Shown in pieces: positions 9,188 to 63,891 of a stretch of DNA of 64,000 nucleotides. Position numbers and translations under genes: made by a program. The stretch is taken from NCBI GenBank assembly GCA_018670085.1, contig JABHRS010000036.1, positions 682 through 64,681 of the forward strand, read 5' to 3'. Origin of the DNA: an archaeon. Its GTDB lineage: Archaea > Nanobdellota > Nanobdellia > Woesearchaeales > GW2011-AR9. Below the pieces are notes generated by a model that saw only the letters and a program-made list of their open reading frames with translations, searched no databases and had not been told where the DNA came from. Numbering within the stretch: the stretch's first letter is position 1; each line of letters begins with the position of its first letter.

Positions 9188-10123
9188 TTATTTTTTAGAA
9201 ACTGTTTTCTTTTTCTTAGTAATTGCTGTTTTCTTTTTAGAACTAGCCTTTTTTACTGGCTTCTTTGCTTTTTTCACGACTGCTTTCTTTTTCTTAACTA
9301 CTTTTTTCTCGGTTGCTGGTTTTTTTACTTTTTTGACAGCAGTTTTTTTCTTTGAAGACACTGGTTTAGAGCTTTTCTTTTTAGCGGCTTTTTTCTTAGC
9401 CATCTTTTCCTTTTTCTTCAACTCAGCAGCTTTCTTTTTAGCAGCCTTTTTCTCAGCAGATTTTTTCTTTTTCTCATCTGCCTTTTTCTTTTTCAAGTCT
9501 TCTTTCGCTTTTTTCTCATCAGCAACTCTTTTTTTCTCATCAGCTTCTTCTTTTTTACGCTCTTCTTCAACTCGTTTTGCAGCAGCTCTCATTCGCTCTC
9601 GCTCAGATTTTTCCCAATCTAGAATTTCTTTACTTGTATTTTTAATCCTAGCTTGCAAACTTATGATTCTTTGAGTATTATCATCTTGTTGCATTAATTC
9701 CCCTGTTTCTGGACAGTGAAAGTCATATTCCATTGCATCATCAAAATTTAATCGAACTCCACCATCAGGTGAGACAAAAAACAATTCTTTCTGTTCTTTT
9801 TCTAAAATTCCCTGCATTCGAAGAAGTAATTCCTTTTTATCTTTAATATAATTGAACTTAACTTGGGCAACATCAATTGTCCAATAATAAACATACCAAC
9901 CCTTTTGTTTGTCCTTTTTACGGGTAAATGTCACTAAATTATTATTATAAAGTAAATATAACATTCGACGAACAACTTTGATATCACGCTTCATCTTTTT
10001 TGCGATATCAAATTCAGAGACGTTTTCCTTACCTTTTAGAACTTTAAGCAGATCTAGTCCATCATCATGTAGAATGCGAGTGATAACTTCTTCAACTTTT
10101 TTACTGGTAAATCTCATGGCCAC
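9188..10123 (-). CDS. tfe: Transcription factor E (TFIIE-alpha homologue) fused to a roughly 140-aa Lys/Ala-rich tail
   Basis: N-terminal winged-helix pattern (VSEFDIAKKMKRDIKVVRRMLYLLYNNNLV, WYVYYWTID) and a zinc-ribbon remnant (FHCPETGE). C-terminus is KKAAKKKAAELKKKEK...AKKPVKK repeats. Confidence 0.8.
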   Translation of the reverse strand: MAMRFTSKKVEEVITRILHDDGLDLLKVLKGKENVSEFDIAKKMKRDIKVVRRMLYLLYNNNLVTFTRKKDKQKGWYVYYWTIDVAQVKFNYIKDKKELLLRMQGILEKEQKELFFVSPDGGVRLNFDDAMEYDFHCPETGELMQQDDNTQRIISLQARIKNTSKEILDWEKSERERMRAAAKRVEEERKKEEADEKKRVADEKKAKEDLKKKKADEKKKKSAEKKAAKKKAAELKKKEKMAKKKAAKKKSSKPVSSKKKTAVKKVKKPATEKKVVKKKKAVVKKAKKPVKKASSKKKTAITKKKKTVSKK

Positions 10124-10232
10124 TTATATTCCCCAGTATCCACTTCAGGTGATGACACTTTTAAATCTTTCTATGGCAGGGTCTCTATGGGCAAAAAATC
10201 CCACTCTTAAGAAACAATTTGCATGAAAAACC

Positions 10233-10366
10233 TCACTACCTACTAACAATTCATTCTGAATTCTTATCAGTTGTGGAGCGCTTGGAGACCCACAACCCAC
10301 TAACAATTTCTTTGAAATTCTTACAGGTATTGGCTTCTACTGCGTAAGCCACTACCCACTGGTCAC
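10233..10366 (+). repeat. Tandem units of about 55 bp, each with conserved flanks around a hairpin of different sequence
   Basis: Unit A is GAATTCTTATCAG plus stem GTTGTGG/CCACAAC (10258-10296). Unit B is GAAATTCTTACAG plus stem TGGCTT/AAGCCA plus GCCACTACCCACTGGTCAC (10314-10366). A CACTACCYACT block flanks each unit. A third copy lies at 53359-53408 on the minus strand. Confidence 0.7.
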
Positions 10367-10378
10367 CCACAGAAACAG

Positions 10379-10386
10379 TTTAAATA
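10379..10386 (+). promoter_or_regulatory. TATA box of hjc
   Basis: tttaaata lies 31 nt before the ATG at 10410. The same spacing of about 30 nt is seen at several other genes here. Confidence 0.45.
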
Positions 10387-10409
10387 CGATTTTAAATATA
10401 TATCTGTAT

Positions 10410-10928
10410 ATGGCAAAACCGAAGAAGTGGATGAATCGTAAGGCTAAAGGAACTAATGCTGAGCGTGAGTTGATTCATATTTTCCACAAATTCGCTTGGA
10501 GTGCAGTTAGAATCGCGGGATCAGGGTCTACTAGGTATCCAGCACCTGACGTATTAGCTGGCAATGGATTCCGTAGAATTGCAATTGAAGCTAAGTTAAT
10601 TGCAGCCACTCGTAAATATTTCTCTTATCAAGATGTTGAACAGTTACAGGCATTTTCCAAAACATTTGGTTGTGAGAGTTGGCTTGCTGTCAAATTCCCA
10701 AATAAAGAGTGGGCATTTTTTAATCCAGAAGATTTGATAGAAACTAAAACTGCGTTTGTAGCAACTGTTGATTTAGCGGACAGGTGCGGCCTATCAATCG
10801 AAGAGCTTTTAGAAGTTGTATCGTTGGGTCAAGACACTGTAAATCAAGAAACAATCGAAGAATCAAATCCATTGGATCAATTTGATGGATTGGAATCAGA
10901 TGAGAATTTTATTATATCTTCAGAATAA
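10410..10928 (+). CDS. hjc: Holliday junction resolvase Hjc with an acidic C-terminal extension
   Basis: KGTNAERELIHIF, RIAGSG, PDVLAGNG and IAIEAKL match the Hjc E...D...EXK nuclease core. Confidence 0.85.
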   Translation: MAKPKKWMNRKAKGTNAERELIHIFHKFAWSAVRIAGSGSTRYPAPDVLAGNGFRRIAIEAKLIAATRKYFSYQDVEQLQAFSKTFGCESWLAVKFPNKEWAFFNPEDLIETKTAFVATVDLADRCGLSIEELLEVVSLGQDTVNQETIEESNPLDQFDGLESDENFIISSE

Positions 10929-10944
10929 ATAACATCTAATAAAT

Positions 10945-11847
10945 CTAAACTTCAAAACTCATAAAGTCTTCTGCAAACTTTACTTTTTTATGATACTTCT
11001 TCGCTTCCTTCAAAAGTACAGAAACATCACGATACCTAATACTTGGGTGTGTGAGATAAACTTGTAAGGCCCCTGCTTTAGTAGCTAGCTCCGCACTTTC
11101 TTTTGCGGTCATGTGATCATACTTAACGGCCAATTTTTTATCCTCAAATAGAAATGTGGATTCAATTATGAGTGCATCGCAATTCTTAGCTAAACTGCGA
11201 GCACCGGCGCAAGGACGAGTGTCAGGAACGTATGCAAATTTACGTCCAACAACTAAGGAAGTCACATTTTTGCTTTTCACAAGTTTGCCACTGGCGCGCA
11301 CATTTTTTCCAGCTTGAATTTCAGCTAGCATCGGACCTTGCACTAATCCAGCTTTTTTCGCTTTTTTCATATCAATTTTCAGTCGATCTTTTTCTTTAAG
11401 TGAAAATCCAACACAATCAACGCTGTGCGAAAGTGGCTCAGCTGTTACAATAAAATCCTTTCCTTCAAGAATCACGCCACCAGCACTGACTTCGTGCAAC
11501 TTGTGAGGTAACCCATTCATACTAGGAAACGCTTTTTTGAAATGATTAAATTTTTTACGACTTCCCTTTGGCCCATAAATATCTAGCGTATGTCCAACTT
11601 GGTCTGCTGCCATCGTAGAGATTAAACCCGCAAGTCCAAGTGCGTGGTCCCCATGCCAGTGGCTAATGAAGATTCGTGTAATTTTGCTTCTCTTCAATCC
11701 AGCAATTTTCATTTGCCGTTGAATCCCTTCACCGCAATCAAACAACAAGTTCTCACTACCAAACGAGACATGAATCCCAGAGTGATTCCTTTCTTTAGTT
11801 GGTTGCATGCAAGTGGTTCCAAGGAATGTAACTTTCATTGTTGACAT
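10945..11847 (-). CDS. rnz: Ribonuclease Z (tRNA 3' endonuclease, metallo-beta-lactamase fold)
   Basis: MKVTFLGT start, the HWHGDH motif, and about 300 aa in length. Confidence 0.85.
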   Translation of the reverse strand: MSTMKVTFLGTTCMQPTKERNHSGIHVSFGSENLLFDCGEGIQRQMKIAGLKRSKITRIFISHWHGDHALGLAGLISTMAADQVGHTLDIYGPKGSRKKFNHFKKAFPSMNGLPHKLHEVSAGGVILEGKDFIVTAEPLSHSVDCVGFSLKEKDRLKIDMKKAKKAGLVQGPMLAEIQAGKNVRASGKLVKSKNVTSLVVGRKFAYVPDTRPCAGARSLAKNCDALIIESTFLFEDKKLAVKYDHMTAKESAELATKAGALQVYLTHPSIRYRDVSVLLKEAKKYHKKVKFAEDFMSFEV

Positions 11848-50974: not shown

Positions 50975-53317
50975 TTACTTTTTCTTCTCATACTTAGCAG
51001 CAAGCACTTCACGAATCCGACTAACAATTGTTTTTCCAACTCCTGAAACTTCTAATAACTCTTTCTCACTTGCCTGTACAATTTTCTCAACTGATCCAAA
51101 ATGCAGTAGTAATTTCTGTGCAACCGATGGGCCAACAGATGGAAAACTATTAACAATAAATTCCTGCTGATTTCGAACACCTTGTGGTTTACTTGAATGT
51201 AAACTAGCAACCCTCCCACTTGATTGTTGTTCTCTTTTTGCCATCACAGCTAAGAGTGCAGCAGTATCGTTGGCATCTTTGGTATAAAGCACTGGTACGC
51301 CAAATCCAAGTACAATTGATGCCAGTGCCCCGCGAATTGCGTTTGGGTGTACTCGCCGAACAGAATATATATCTTCTTCACCTTCAACAATTAATACTGA
51401 TTTTTCAAATTTAGAACGCAGCTCCTTAACTTGTCCAAGTAATCGGCCATCAAGCATACTTGAAACAAAGTCATCTACTTTTTTAAGTTCGACAGCCACT
51501 TTTCCAGCCACCACATAATCTGCAGATTCCAATTGTGCAAGTCTAACTTTTATTCCCATCTCAATCAATTCTTTCACAATTGTATTTCCTTTCTCACGAT
51601 GGTCACAAACTATCGTAACTACTTCCTTTGCTGGATCAACAAACTGTGATAATTTAGAATTATGGCGTACATCGCTAATTTGTTTTCCAGCTACAACTCG
51701 CCTGCTGCTGCTTTTAATCTCATTTAACGCATTTCCTGTGGAACTACTAGTATTTGACCCCTTCATTTCCGATGGAGATTTAACCTTTTTATCCTCTAAA
51801 GACACAACTAATTTTCCTTTCATTCGCTTAAGTTCGTCCAAATGTCTGTACATTCGTTTTTCTTTGTGAAATGCAGCCCACTTGTATGCTTCATCGCGAG
51901 TTCCTTTGGTAACAAGAACTGTCACTTCTCCTTTTTCACTACGGCCAGTTCTACCTCTCCTTTGAATTGATGCAATTGCACTTGGAGTTGGTTCATAAAA
52001 TATTACTTTATTCACTCTTGGGATATCTAGTCCTTCTTCTGCAACTGAAGTTGCAACTAGCACATTGAACTCGCCATTTCGAAATCTGTCCAGTACTTGT
52101 TTCTGGATTTTTTGGGTCATCCCGATCCCTTTTTTCTTTGTTTGTCCAACAAAAATTTGGGCGTTGACTTTTTGTTTTTCAAGTGCCTGTACAATTTGTG
52201 CTGCAGTATCTCGAAATTGACTGAACACCAATATCTTACGATTAGAATCTAATGAAATCTCCTTTTGAACCATTTCAATTAATCTTGGTAGTTTTGGATG
52301 TACAATCCCTTCTTCAACTAATTGTTCAGAGCTGTATAATGCTGATTTAAAATTTTCATCTCGAACTAAGTTTTTTACTGCTTTTACTTTTGATTTTCCA
52401 GAACTACTTTGCAACTCTTGTAAATAATCATTACAAACCTTCACTCCTTGGCATTCTAATAATCCTACTGCATGTTCTATTTTCATAGCTTCTGCAAGTA
52501 GGGATAGGGATTTCATAACTTCAAAATTTCCTCTGTCCTTCCCAAGTTCTCTTTGTAACTCACGTTGCAATTTCAGTAATTGTGACTTGGTCAAGTTTTC
52601 TTTATTCAAGTACCCAAGTAAACAAATAGCTTTTAGTTTTGATTTGTAACAATTTTTCATCATTGAATGCAGTGCCTTAAACTGCTCTGGAAATTCTAAA
52701 TAGATCCATTCATGGTCAGTATCTTGGATGTAGTGTTTTACATCGTGATCATTATCAGTCCTAACTTCTATCTCTTCAATGGATAAATTCTGGCAGACTT
52801 CTTGGATTTTCTCCATTTCTGAGCCAGGTGATGCTGTTAACGCTAAAACGTGTGAGCTATTTGCAAGTTTTGCATATTGTTTTGCCAGCCAGACATAGCT
52901 GTATTCTCCTGTTGCGTGGTGTGCTTCATCAAAAACAACCAAGCTCACATCTTTAAAGCAGATTCTTTCATTGATTAAATCATTCTCTAACCCTTGCGGC
53001 GTACTTATCACAATCTTTGCATTTTTCCACATCTCTTCACGTTTACTTGGTTTAACTGATCCTGTAAACAATACTATTTTCTCGTCTTTAATATCTAAAT
53101 GTGTTTGAAAACTGCGTTGATGTTGCTCGCAAAGAGGTTTAGTTGGTGCTAGGAGCAGTATTTTTGATTCTGGGTGTTTATTTAGCCTAACTACACTCAT
53201 CATTATTGCAAGAGCCGTTTTTCCAAGTCCGGTTGGCAATACTACTAGGGTATTTTTTGTAGCGCAAGTTGCCAGAATTGTTTGTTGGTAAATCCTTGGT
53301 GTTAGATTTTTTAGCAT
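50975..53317 (-). CDS. hef: Hef: DEAH-type helicase fused to an ERCC4/XPF nuclease and an HhH2 domain
   Basis: LPTGLGKT (motif I), DEAHH (motif II), LTASP, QRRGRTGR (motif VI). ERCC4 block CDHRE...ADYVV...VELKKVDD. C-terminal HhH (FGSVEKIVQASEKELLEVSGVGKTI). Confidence 0.85.
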   Translation of the reverse strand: MLKNLTPRIYQQTILATCATKNTLVVLPTGLGKTALAIMMSVVRLNKHPESKILLLAPTKPLCEQHQRSFQTHLDIKDEKIVLFTGSVKPSKREEMWKNAKIVISTPQGLENDLINERICFKDVSLVVFDEAHHATGEYSYVWLAKQYAKLANSSHVLALTASPGSEMEKIQEVCQNLSIEEIEVRTDNDHDVKHYIQDTDHEWIYLEFPEQFKALHSMMKNCYKSKLKAICLLGYLNKENLTKSQLLKLQRELQRELGKDRGNFEVMKSLSLLAEAMKIEHAVGLLECQGVKVCNDYLQELQSSSGKSKVKAVKNLVRDENFKSALYSSEQLVEEGIVHPKLPRLIEMVQKEISLDSNRKILVFSQFRDTAAQIVQALEKQKVNAQIFVGQTKKKGIGMTQKIQKQVLDRFRNGEFNVLVATSVAEEGLDIPRVNKVIFYEPTPSAIASIQRRGRTGRSEKGEVTVLVTKGTRDEAYKWAAFHKEKRMYRHLDELKRMKGKLVVSLEDKKVKSPSEMKGSNTSSSTGNALNEIKSSSRRVVAGKQISDVRHNSKLSQFVDPAKEVVTIVCDHREKGNTIVKELIEMGIKVRLAQLESADYVVAGKVAVELKKVDDFVSSMLDGRLLGQVKELRSKFEKSVLIVEGEEDIYSVRRVHPNAIRGALASIVLGFGVPVLYTKDANDTAALLAVMAKREQQSSGRVASLHSSKPQGVRNQQEFIVNSFPSVGPSVAQKLLLHFGSVEKIVQASEKELLEVSGVGKTIVSRIREVLAAKYEKKK

Positions 53318-53408: not shown

Positions 53409-53657
53409 CTCTTTCATAATTAATCTGTTCTACTCAACCAGACCTAATCTAACATACACTTTCTATCGAATGAAAGGTTAAAAACCTCACATCTTGGACA
53501 TCTCTATAAAAATAATCTGTTTGGTTTTTTGACATCTCAGTACTAGTTTGTCACTACTATAAACTAACAATAGTTCGAAAGATTTAAATAAGGGTGTCTA
53601 CTTGAGCGTAGTAATCTAGTAAAATCGCTAGATATTATTATCAAAAATAAACTATAC

Positions 53658-62433: not shown

Positions 62434-63582
62434 ATGGATCAACTAACTTCCAAGGAACAAGCAGCATTACGAGCCAAATCGATTGCCATCATCGGCGCAG
62501 GACCAATTGGCTGCTACACAGCACATCTATTAGCAAAGGCTGGACATAACGTCGAAGTATTCGAAGAACACCAGCAGATCGGAAATCCCATTCAATGCAC
62601 TGGATTACTCACAGCTGACTTCGACAAATTTTTCCCAGATTTAAAAGATCAAAAACACAATTTTCTAGTATCAACGTTCAAATCAGTTACTGTTAAAACA
62701 AAAAACAAATCTATTAAAATTCCACAAAAGGAATATTTGGTTTGCCGGACTAAATTCGATCAATTCTTTGGAAAACTAGCAACAAAAAGTGGCGCAAAGA
62801 TTCATTTGAATCACTCATTCCGAAGAAAAGAAGGCAACTCTTTAATCATTAAAGACAGCATAAACAAAGAAGAAAAATTTTTCACTCCAGACATTGTAAT
62901 CGCAGCTGACGGCCCATTAAGTAAAACTGCTAAAGCCTTTAACATCTTTCACAAACTTAGAACTAATTATTATGGGATTCAAGCAGTTGTGGAAGGAAAA
63001 TTCAACGAAGATAATTTCGATGTATTCTTTGGAGAACAATTCTGCAAAGACTTTTTTGTTTGGGTAGTTCCTGAATCGCAAACCACAGCCAGAGTTGGTC
63101 TTTGTAGCAAAAAAAATTCCAAAGCCATCTTCGACCAGTTCATGAAAAAACACAAAGAATGGACTATTAAAGAAATGCAAGCTGGAGTAATTCCTATCTT
63201 TCACAACGACCAAATTCTACAATCAAAAAACTGTTTTGTGGTTGGCGATGCTGCAGGGCAAGTAAAAGCTACAACTTTAGGTGGTTTAATCCCAGGCCTT
63301 CGAGCAGCTGAAAAACTTGCAACTGCAATCAATAATAATAATTACAGAAGCTACCAAAGTAAATCTTTAAAGATTAGGATTGAATTACAACTGCACAAGC
63401 AGATTCGAAAAGTAATGGATAACTTTAGTGATCAAGATTGGGATTCACTTTTAACTTTAACCAACCAGCAAAAAGTAAAAGATATTATGAGTCAGTATTC
63501 AAGAGACAATCCAATTCCTCTTATTACCAAACTTCTAATCAAGGAACCACGTTACTTGAAGTTCTTGAAACATTTATTTTAA
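62434..63582 (+). CDS. Geranylgeranyl reductase family flavoprotein (archaeal lipid saturation)
   Basis: IAIIGAGPIGCYTAHLLAKAGHNVEVFEE (FAD Rossmann fold), VIAADGPLS, VVGDAAGQVKATTLGG. Confidence 0.85.
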   Translation: MDQLTSKEQAALRAKSIAIIGAGPIGCYTAHLLAKAGHNVEVFEEHQQIGNPIQCTGLLTADFDKFFPDLKDQKHNFLVSTFKSVTVKTKNKSIKIPQKEYLVCRTKFDQFFGKLATKSGAKIHLNHSFRRKEGNSLIIKDSINKEEKFFTPDIVIAADGPLSKTAKAFNIFHKLRTNYYGIQAVVEGKFNEDNFDVFFGEQFCKDFFVWVVPESQTTARVGLCSKKNSKAIFDQFMKKHKEWTIKEMQAGVIPIFHNDQILQSKNCFVVGDAAGQVKATTLGGLIPGLRAAEKLATAINNNNYRSYQSKSLKIRIELQLHKQIRKVMDNFSDQDWDSLLTLTNQQKVKDIMSQYSRDNPIPLITKLLIKEPRYLKFLKHLF

Positions 63583-63707
63583 TTTATTAAGAATTAAATA
63601 TGTTCAAGAAGGAGCAACAGTGAGTTGTTGGTACATTTATTTTAATTTATTAAGAATTAAATATGTTCAAGAAGGAGCAACAGTGAGTTGTTGGTACATT
63701 TATTTTA
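63571..63707 (+). repeat. 63-bp tandem duplication (2 copies plus an 11-nt partial) spanning the reductase stop codon
   Basis: Unit CATTTATTTTAATTTATTAAGAATTAAATATGTTCAAGAAGGAGCAACAGTGAGTTGTTGGTA occurs at 63571-63633 and 63634-63696. The partial copy is at 63697-63707. Confidence 0.9.
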
Positions 63708-63891
63708 ATGTTAACAATAATAAACATACTAATTGATTAACAATGCTGAGTTACTGAGACATACATTCCAACATTGTGGCCACAATCACTCTGTTGAAAA
63801 ACAGATTCCCCAAAAAACAAGCTACAACATACAAATCCAAACATTTAAATAGCAAAAAAATGTTTCTAATATAGTTAATGAGGTGATGTTT

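Follow-up and report, generated by a model that had tools for sequence, protein, structure and literature searches.

A 17-bp promoter box as a putative operator of DNA-processing genes in Woesearchaeota-like DPANN archaea

What is the repeated element that lies upstream of both hjc and hef, two genes for enzymes of branched DNA, in the 64,000-nucleotide stretch of archaeal DNA analysed here (hereafter the window), and which part of it is likely to matter? The original prediction had drawn attention to hairpins with differing stems at a fixed distance from the two promoters, and had suggested either a shared operator or a cruciform-forming site. As judged by comparison of sequences at related loci, the conserved, functional-looking part is the 3' ('right') arm of the element, CCACWASCCACTGGWCA, which consists of two CCACTNN heptads plus a tail; the minimal form of this box is CCACTGG(A/T)CA.

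The hjc gene (10410-10928, plus strand) encodes a Holliday junction resolvase of 172 aa (PF01870, E=2e-23) and is preceded, between positions 10233 and 10386 of the same strand, by three diverged tandem units. Farthest from the gene is unit 0, represented by a degenerate box, TCACTACCTACTAACAA (10233-10249), that aligns with other distal boxes. Unit 1 comprises a first copy of a left arm, GAATTCTTATCAG (10258-10270), an inverted repeat, GTTGTGG/CCACAAC, with a 13-nt spacer (10270-10276 and 10290-10296), and a middle variant box, CCACAACCCACTAACAA (10290-10306), whose first heptad doubles as the 3' arm of the inverted repeat. Unit 2 opens with the second copy of the left arm, or linker, GAAATTCTTACAG (10314-10326), which aligns with GGTTCTCATAAG/GATTCTCATAGG in four related loci (L015, L107, L134 and L136). 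It continues with the inverted repeat GTATTGGCTT-N9-AAGCCACTAC (10327-10336 and 10346-10355), which has one T.C mismatch and whose 3' arm overlaps heptad 1 of the proximal box. This last, CCACTACCCACTGGTCA (10349-10365), is made up of two CCACTNN heptads and TCA, and is the putative conserved operator core. A 13-nt spacer, CCCACAGAAACAG (10366-10378), spans the BRE position and leads to the TATA box TTTAAATA (10379-10386). The ATG at 10410 lies 31 nt past the start of the TATA box, a position from which the hjc mRNA is predicted to be leaderless.

A near-identical copy is found on the minus strand upstream of hef (50975-53317), which encodes a 780-aa protein with helicase, ERCC4 nuclease and HhH2 domains (Pfam DEAD, Helicase_C, ERCC4 and HHH_2). 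Here the left arm GAATTCTTATCAG (53408-53396) is followed by the palindrome GTATTGGCCTAT-tac-ATAGGCCACTAC (53396-53370), by a proximal box identical to that of hjc, CCACTACCCACTGGTCA (53376-53360), by a 13-nt spacer (53359-53347) and by the TATA box TTTTTAAT (53346-53339), with the ATG at 53317, 29 nt past the start of the TATA box. The element had been described as locked to its promoters, and so it is: at both loci it ends 12-13 nt before the TATA box, itself some 30 nt before the ATG. The intergenic regions involved measure 286 nt and ~340 nt, long for a compact genome, and both neighbouring genes are divergent from hjc and hef.

The statements originally made on the sequence of the tandem hairpin units at hjc, and of the further copy at hef, hold good. 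The 64-kb window contains exactly two copies of the 18-mer CCACTACCCACTGGTCAC, where 0.02 would be expected, and the similarity of hjc unit 2 to the hef copy, like that of unit A to unit B, exceeded that obtained with all of 2000 shuffles. TRF detected no tandem array in the hjc upstream region, since the units are too diverged for it. Taken alone as a 13-mer with two mismatches allowed, the left arm gave 5 matches against 3.7 expected, which is not significant.

In each hairpin, heptad 1 of the box serves as the 3' arm, and a copy of that heptad in inverted orientation provides the 5' arm. Folded as single-stranded DNA, the proximal hairpin of hjc (10327-10355) reaches -7.2 kcal/mol (z -3.5, equalled by 0/200 shuffles) and the hef palindrome -8.1 kcal/mol (z -4.2, again 0/200), while the unit-1 hairpin (z -1.9) and the others are marginal. 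The hef copy alone combines a long, nearly perfect palindrome with a short spacer at its centre (a 12-bp stem with one mismatch and a 3-nt loop); the other hairpins have stems of 6-10 bp and loops of 9-13 nt. The stems had been called covarying. Seven modules were aligned with the structure as guide and their base pairs counted by hand, because MAFFT had placed the two stem types out of register, and the count yields a sole compensatory change, T-A to A-T at heptad position 5, carried by the two window copies, which also share a new T.C mismatch. That one pair can stand as covariation; the rest of what had been so described consists of palindrome extensions specific to the window, CTT/AAG and CCTAT/ATAGG, with a 3' arm that is simply heptad 1 of the box. 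Nor does the hairpin hold up as the defining feature of the element: it is absent from the hjc promoters of two relatives (L016 and L017, see below) and, in the 112 instances listed, heptad 1 is paired in 10 stems of 6 bp or longer, where shuffles predict 6.4, which is no enrichment. On these alignments the hairpin is a local addition in the window's close relatives.

The window comes from a marine DPANN archaeon, whose Hjc has homologues at 60-75% identity, the nearest named homologues of both Hjc and Hef belonging to Woesearchaeota or Nanoarchaeota MAGs. Ten contigs of the window's own organism, 99.97-100% identical, are uninformative on conservation, all ten strains being identical. Four relatives (L014-L017) were fetched via Hjc homologues at 69-75% identity. 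Their gene order is RNase Z(+) hjc(+) TFE(+), from which the window differs in that hjc alone is flipped. All four retain CCAC[AT]A[CG]CCACTGGTCA, 13-14 nt from the TATA box of hjc, the latter again being TTTAAATA in L015-L017. In L016 and L017 the box begins immediately past the RNase Z stop codon, with neither left arm nor hairpin and no room for one, from which it follows that the conserved element is the right arm. The box of hef is likewise kept in nine relatives. Three are clade loci (L134, L135 and L136; 70-73% Hef identity), in which it occupies the equivalent position and the spacer GCGCTAAA... is conserved, and six are metagenomic hef loci at 52-68% Hef identity. Conservation upstream of hjc and hef in related genomes, on which the original prediction depended, is thus borne out. 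Variants like CCACTGGTCACTGGTCA, and the run of tandem CCACTAC heptads directly 5' of the box in L080, fit the heptad-repeat structure.

Around the box, the window's clade has a composite module in which a distal variant box (...ACTGACAAC) is followed after ~5 nt by GGTTCTCATAAG, A, TTGTGG, N13 and the proximal box. It recurs before hef in the three closest species, before hjc in L015 and at a single additional promoter, in L107. The TTGTGG-N13-CCACAA arrangement of L015, L107, L134 and L136 is homologous to that of the window, and the same four loci have the distal variant box (...ACTGACAAC) placed 56-59 nt 5' of the proximal one. A profile of the whole module matched in full only at its own source sequences, all from the window's clade, and loci outside that clade matched at the box-to-TATA part only; the extended module is therefore limited to hjc, hef and one other promoter within the clade. 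A scan of genome contigs for the left arm, a gap and CCACWACCCACT, with the window's species lying outside the GTDB representatives, produced no related match; its three matches, to Flavobacterium, a Methanobacteriaceae MAG and an alphaproteobacterial MAG, are unrelated and were read as chance. Elsewhere, a distal core on the same strand was present 41-85 nt upstream in 11 of 98 promoters, with a single case on the opposite strand. These extra upstream cores, together with those beside cdc6 in L137 and L138 (described below), indicate that a multi-site architecture is a recurring option. Cooperative binding by the same putative protein is the probable role of the left arm, the inverted heptad and the degenerate boxes farther upstream, all of which would be accessory half-sites.

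The distribution of the box was assessed by scanning metagenome contigs with a pattern composed of the full 17-mer, N12-15 and TTWAWW. At least 114 further stretches were found in marine, groundwater, sediment and other metagenomes, a count to be read as a biased lower bound since both a TATA-like hexamer and the full 17-mer were demanded. The same pattern of box and TATA gave 0 matches in 2.9 M viral contigs. Among the matches listed, 110 non-identical instances were aligned, and the proximal box of hjc in the window agrees with their consensus: the 60 nt 5' of the box carry ~0 information, and the spacer, 13 nt long in almost all instances, is semi-conserved as a-s-y-n-C-G-S-r-T-A-r-r-r, leading to a TTTATAAA-like TATA box. 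A 17-mer that scarcely varies between flanks that are not conserved argues for selection on the box itself. Since the pattern had itself imposed the TATA-like hexamer, a control for bias was made on box-like copies (up to 2 mismatches) that it had missed in 866 kb of related DNA. All seven such copies have a TATA box at 13 nt, followed by an ATG, so that of the random REP/MITE-like dispersal looked for there was no sign. Half-box promoters of the form CCACTGGACA-N13-TATA also exist, for example at the Bro-N gene of L015, which means that the strict 17-mer under-counts the set.

Open reading frames of at least 60 aa start 40-49 nt past the box in 46% of the 111 unique instances listed, compared with 6% at random positions of the same loci, a distance that suggests leaderless mRNAs. 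A second group of reading frames starts 55-70 nt past the box, in some cases preceded by a ribosome-binding site of GGAGGTG type. The region between box and TATA box is also unusual in composition. This was measured against 164 other promoters from the same loci, matched for TATA type and for TATA-to-ATG distance. C occupies position -9 at a frequency of 0.81 in box promoters versus 0.16 in the ordinary ones, and G occupies position -1 at 0.48 versus 0.09. The box promoters further have G at -8 and -7 and T at -5, where the ordinary promoters have the usual A-rich BRE. The hjc spacer of the window follows the box-promoter pattern, with C at -9, G at -7, A at -4 and G at -1.

Proteins encoded downstream of the box were clustered and then annotated, giving 92 reading frames among the matches listed. 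About 70 of these, or some three quarters, are nucleases, repair proteins, restriction-modification (R-M) proteins, DNA-binding proteins or proteins of mobile elements. LAGLIDADG_3 nucleases are the most frequent box-bearing family among the matches listed (19 downstream genes), followed by Bro-N (11), Hef (7), N4/N6 and N6 methylases (6), Hjc and C5 DNA methylase (5 each), NgoPII/HaeIII restriction enzymes (4) and an RNase_H_2-type exonuclease (3). The radical-SAM DNA repair protein TIGR03916, integrase, KilA-N, TnpB and HNH account for two genes each, and NreA, ORF6N and a MazE-like protein for one each. Among the 92 listed, of which about a quarter are unannotated, no housekeeping gene (ribosomal or translation, metabolic, transport) was identified; genes of that type dominate the neighbouring gene tables of the same loci. 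The pattern scan and the tally of downstream genes thus show a strong bias towards DNA processing. As regards the DNA-repair regulon originally proposed, the conservation at hjc and hef and this bias agree with it, but the gene set proves broader than repair. Rigid placement and orientation with respect to the TATA box, conservation in orthologous promoters with diverged flanks and a coherent set of genes are together what an operator would display.

Not every gene of repair or replication belongs to the set, since scans for the core in the window and in three cdc6 loci (L137-L139) returned no further copy: neither HerA in the window nor the ligase, AP endonuclease or PolB of L137-L139 has a box. 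Searches of PHROGs and NCBIfam with the unannotated box-driven families (a 130-aa family with 'KKFRAGAISATVW', a 55-aa family with 'KKWEVSIIEL' and others) gave no match, and Rfam and tRNA scans of the window and of the 16 loci with no obvious reading frame behind the box revealed nothing relevant. The LAGLIDADG proteins were considered as a possible WhiA-like regulator and rejected in this role. Their catalytic Asp motifs, GDG and DTDG, are intact and the family is very diverse, so that they look like active nucleases. With many members of the set being mobile-element genes, the box could in part spread as a portable promoter.

Taken together, we think it likely that the 17-bp box is an operator, probably an activating one, through which DPANN archaea of Woesearchaeota-like type control a regulon of DNA transactions. 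A DNA-binding protein with sequence specificity would recognise the box, which, with transcription starting where the promoter geometry predicts, would sit at roughly -60 to -44, just 5' of the non-canonical, G/C-rich BRE region. The box would mark a dedicated class of promoters for genes whose products cut, repair, modify or move DNA, hjc and hef among them. The most likely mechanism is that an activator on the box helps TFB/TBP onto an intrinsically weak BRE/TATA, and that the whole gene set may be switched on jointly, for instance by DNA damage or by the invasion of foreign DNA. Neither the accessory left arm nor the inverted heptad nor the distal boxes would call for a hairpin in DNA or RNA. 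The combination of a non-canonical BRE with a conserved site upstream resembles that in Sulfolobus UV-inducible promoters, and on this analogy an activator site is favoured; the position of the box upstream of the BRE also favours activation, though repression is compatible with it.

Other explanations were weighed against this one, and each falls short in at least one direct test. The hairpin, or a cruciform, might itself be the functional unit, recognised by branched-DNA enzymes, possibly Hjc and Hef, in a structure-based autoregulation. The two proximal palindromes of the window are indeed more stable than shuffles, the inverted heptad TTGTGG-N13-CCACAA is conserved at hjc and hef of the clade, and the one compensatory change preserves pairing, to which the window adds its two palindrome extensions. 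Yet hjc of L016 and L017, like most of the 112 instances listed, has the box but no inverted repeat, and no sequence 5' of the box is conserved across the family. Stems of 6-10 bp with loops of 9-13 nt are poor cruciform formers, which would make extrusion of such hairpins unlikely. The same box, moreover, precedes many genes unrelated to branched DNA; its presence before methylases, restriction enzymes, LAGLIDADG nucleases and Bro-N makes the originally suggested cruciform role for branched-DNA enzymes unlikely, and we consider this reading improbable. A small mobile or selfish repeat without a dedicated regulator (a MITE, a REP or a portable promoter cassette) would account for the tandem duplications at hjc, the near-identical copies in the window and the expanded heptad of L080, as well as for the many box genes of mobile or defence type (integrase, TnpB, R-M systems, LAGLIDADG nucleases). 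No terminal inverted repeats or target duplications were seen by eye in the copies read, however, and the window contains two copies per 64 kb, none away from a promoter. The position is also conserved in orthologous promoters at 52-75% protein identity, around a near-invariant 17-mer with unconserved flanks, and an explanation by dispersal is accordingly rated quite improbable.

That the element is a structured non-coding RNA, or a signal acting in RNA such as a terminator or leader, might be supposed from the hairpins predicted on both strands and from the long intergenic regions. Rfam, however, has no match in the window, the RNA-fold z values are only -0.85 to -2.1, and outside the clade the hairpin is not conserved, with one compensatory pair in seven sequences. 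The element lies 5' of the TATA box and hence outside the hjc and hef mRNAs, and with neighbouring genes divergent no terminator is needed; a role in RNA is very improbable. The flipping of hjc alone with respect to four relatives, and the presence of the box at integrase genes, could suggest instead that the repeats are the scar or the target of a site-specific inversion of hjc. Against this, the other junction (10929-10944) contains neither box nor repeat, L015 combines this tandem module with the ancestral gene order, and the box occurs without rearrangement at hef and at over 100 other promoters, so that a recombination site is highly unlikely.

For the protein that would read the proposed operator, one lead points to the Orc1/Cdc6 family. 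The eight central bases of the box, CCACTGGA, are the centre of the Pyrococcus mini-ORB TTCCACTGGAA, including its CCA-N-TGG dyad, and this mini-ORB is a binding site of Orc1/Cdc6 (PMC1904270). Three DPANN cdc6 loci (L137-L139) were picked by Cdc6 homology alone. In two of the three, L137 and L138, a pair of direct CACTGGACA cores lies 3' of cdc6, no more than 250 nt away, L139 having none, and one core near cdc6 is a perfect palindrome, TGTCCACTGGACA. The proximal core in both L137 and L138 forms the box promoter of a small conserved reading frame with the motif LFxQQxRxLT, a family that is also box-driven in L058, L125, L075 and L118. ORB and mini-ORB differ from the box, however, in their invariants TTCC and GAA, which the box lacks: relative to the ORB core TTCCA-N-TGGAA, the flanking TT and AA are replaced by CC..CA. 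ORBs also form inverted repeats around an AT-rich unwinding region, whereas the boxes sit at promoters. No ORB cluster of inverted copies around an AT-rich region was found beside cdc6 in L137-L139, where there are box-type promoters only, and a screen of the window by sequence patterns showed no ORB cluster, cdc6 gene or origin. The cores near cdc6 are compatible with an Orc1/Cdc6-type reader. We hold it doubtful that the box is an ORB-derived operator through which a protein of the Orc1/Cdc6 family controls a response to damage or foreign DNA in DPANN archaea, in the manner of Orc1-2 in the Sulfolobales, and treat this as a speculative lead. If this were true, an Orc1/Cdc6-driven damage regulon would be an ancient and widespread archaeal feature, extending to restriction-modification, homing endonucleases and mobile elements.

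Searches of the accessible literature by string and by keyword gave no description of the motif or of any DPANN promoter regulon, the only matches being unrelated primers. To our knowledge almost nothing has been charted of how genes are regulated in DPANN archaea, a group either uncultivated or grown in co-culture only. The proposed regulon, with hef, hjc, NreA, nucleases, R-M and mobile genes, would be among the first predicted for the group, and would be the second archaeal regulon of DNA-damage type with a defined cis element, after that of the Sulfolobales. The box could serve as bait for its regulator, would help to annotate small proteins of unknown function as DNA-related, and offers a handle on how repair, defence and mobile DNA are coordinated in tiny symbiotic archaea.

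Sites just 5' of the BRE that recruit TBP/TFB are familiar from archaeal upstream activating sequences (Ptr2/Lrp-type, TFB-RF1 and the TrmBL1 TGM). These sometimes come in pairs several helical turns apart; most are palindromic or only loosely conserved, and they tend to be genus-specific. The DPANN box differs from them in being a direct repeat of heptads, near-invariant across many DPANN lineages. Short operators that govern repair, nuclease and prophage or mobile genes are represented in bacteria by the LexA SOS box, the RDRM/DdrO system of Deinococcus and the mycobacterial RecA-NDp/PafBC promoters. The likeness to the box extends to radical-SAM repair genes of TIGR03916 type, which occur in both sets, but transcription machinery, sequence and regulator all differ and the analogy is functional only.

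The UV-inducible promoters of Sulfolobus combine a weak BRE with an essential upstream motif at -44 to -39, their regulator being proposed to recruit TFB (PMC5817253); this regulator was subsequently shown to be the DNA-damage protein Orc1-2, which binds the upstream motif of the Sulfolobales (PMC6061795). Like the A(N)TTTC motif of that order (PMC5817253), the box is a non-palindromic motif placed right upstream of the BRE/TATA of genes for DNA repair or transfer, in company with a weak BRE. The two are nevertheless unlike in sequence and range. The one is a 6-mer, found in Crenarchaeota at ups, ced and tfb3; the other is a 10-17-mer, found in DPANN archaea at hef, hjc, nuclease and R-M genes, and ANTTTC is absent from the consensus of box plus spacer in the 110 aligned instances listed. 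The DPANN box is set apart, too, by its rigid 13-nt spacing to the TATA box and by its near-invariance over a very wide range of organisms. In kind, an operator that serves a regulon from a site 5' of an archaeal core promoter is already known; the box itself, its breadth among DPANN archaea, its geometry and its set of genes appear to be new.

Genes lying downstream of a box promoter, that is, of the 17-base box (two CCACTNN heptads plus a tail) followed by a 13-nt spacer and a TATA box, include those of GGCC-specific restriction enzymes and C5 methylases. The restriction enzymes are of NgoPII type (loci L114, L126 and L128) and of HaeIII type (L096), while a C5 methylase is box-driven at L041 and others. 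Separately, it may be observed that the hef palindrome (53396-53370, minus strand), an inverted repeat overlapping the box, is extended in the window only, and this extension gives rise to two GGCC sites (TGGCC...GGCCA).

Small proteins are also found under promoters of this type. One family of ORFs, of about 35-42 amino acids, is defined by the motif LFxQQxRxLT (L137 6215-6340; L138 6129-6230; L058 4650; L125; L075; L118) and, in several genomes, lies directly 3' of a 351-residue Orc1/Cdc6 gene; at L137, a cdc6 locus, the box core is a perfect palindrome, TGTCCACTGGACA. Two more box-driven families, neither with a match in Pfam, PHROGs or NCBIfam, comprise proteins of around 55 residues ('KKWEVSIIEL...YKVTR...EEWL'; L025, L062, L088, L123) and of about 130-145 residues ('KKFRAGAISATVW'; L030, L068, L069, L089, L109), several loci of the latter having a promoter to which a half-box at a distal position is added, together with the motif RGCYCTGAAAC upstream.

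Downstream of several box promoters (L021, L023, L092, L119 and L127) there is no ORF; in its place stand tRNA-like fragments, in which sequence resembling a D-arm or anticodon arm is present without an acceptor stem. An Rfam search on these fragments gave no match; they could be left over from integration events in tRNA genes, or be small RNAs that have escaped recognition. At L080 (positions 1-59), directly 5' of a box promoter that is normal in other respects, the box's opening heptad has grown into a tandem array, (CCACTAC)n, of six or more copies, a pattern suggestive of slippage at the heptad repeat. A perfect tandem repeat in the window (63570-63709; 2.2 copies of a 63-nt unit, 100% identical) bears no relation to the box.

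In the region 5' of hef, around 70 nt of noncoding sequence form a block, GATTACTACGCnnAAGTAGnC...TATTTAAATCTTTC...TAATTGTTAGTTTnnAGTAGTGACA, that is kept in all four species compared (the window and the hef loci L134, L135 and L136). In the window it lies within about 53540-53640 on the minus strand; it contains an inverted repeat, CTAC-N6-GTAG, immediately 5' of a TATA box. The block is probably either the promoter and 5' leader of a divergent 580-residue gene or a small RNA.

The second junction of hjc in the window (10929-10944) carries no repeat, and the window Hjc is extended at its C terminus by an additional acidic tail of some 20-30 residues. Within 9188-11847, hjc is flipped relative to both flanking genes, giving the order TFE(-) hjc(+) RNase Z(-), to be compared with RNase Z(+) hjc(+) TFE(+) in four relatives. 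The neighbouring TFE (TFIIE-alpha) homologue (9188-10123, minus strand) ends in a lysine-rich C-terminal tail of around 150 residues, and its homologues in relatives are similarly long (286-315 residues).
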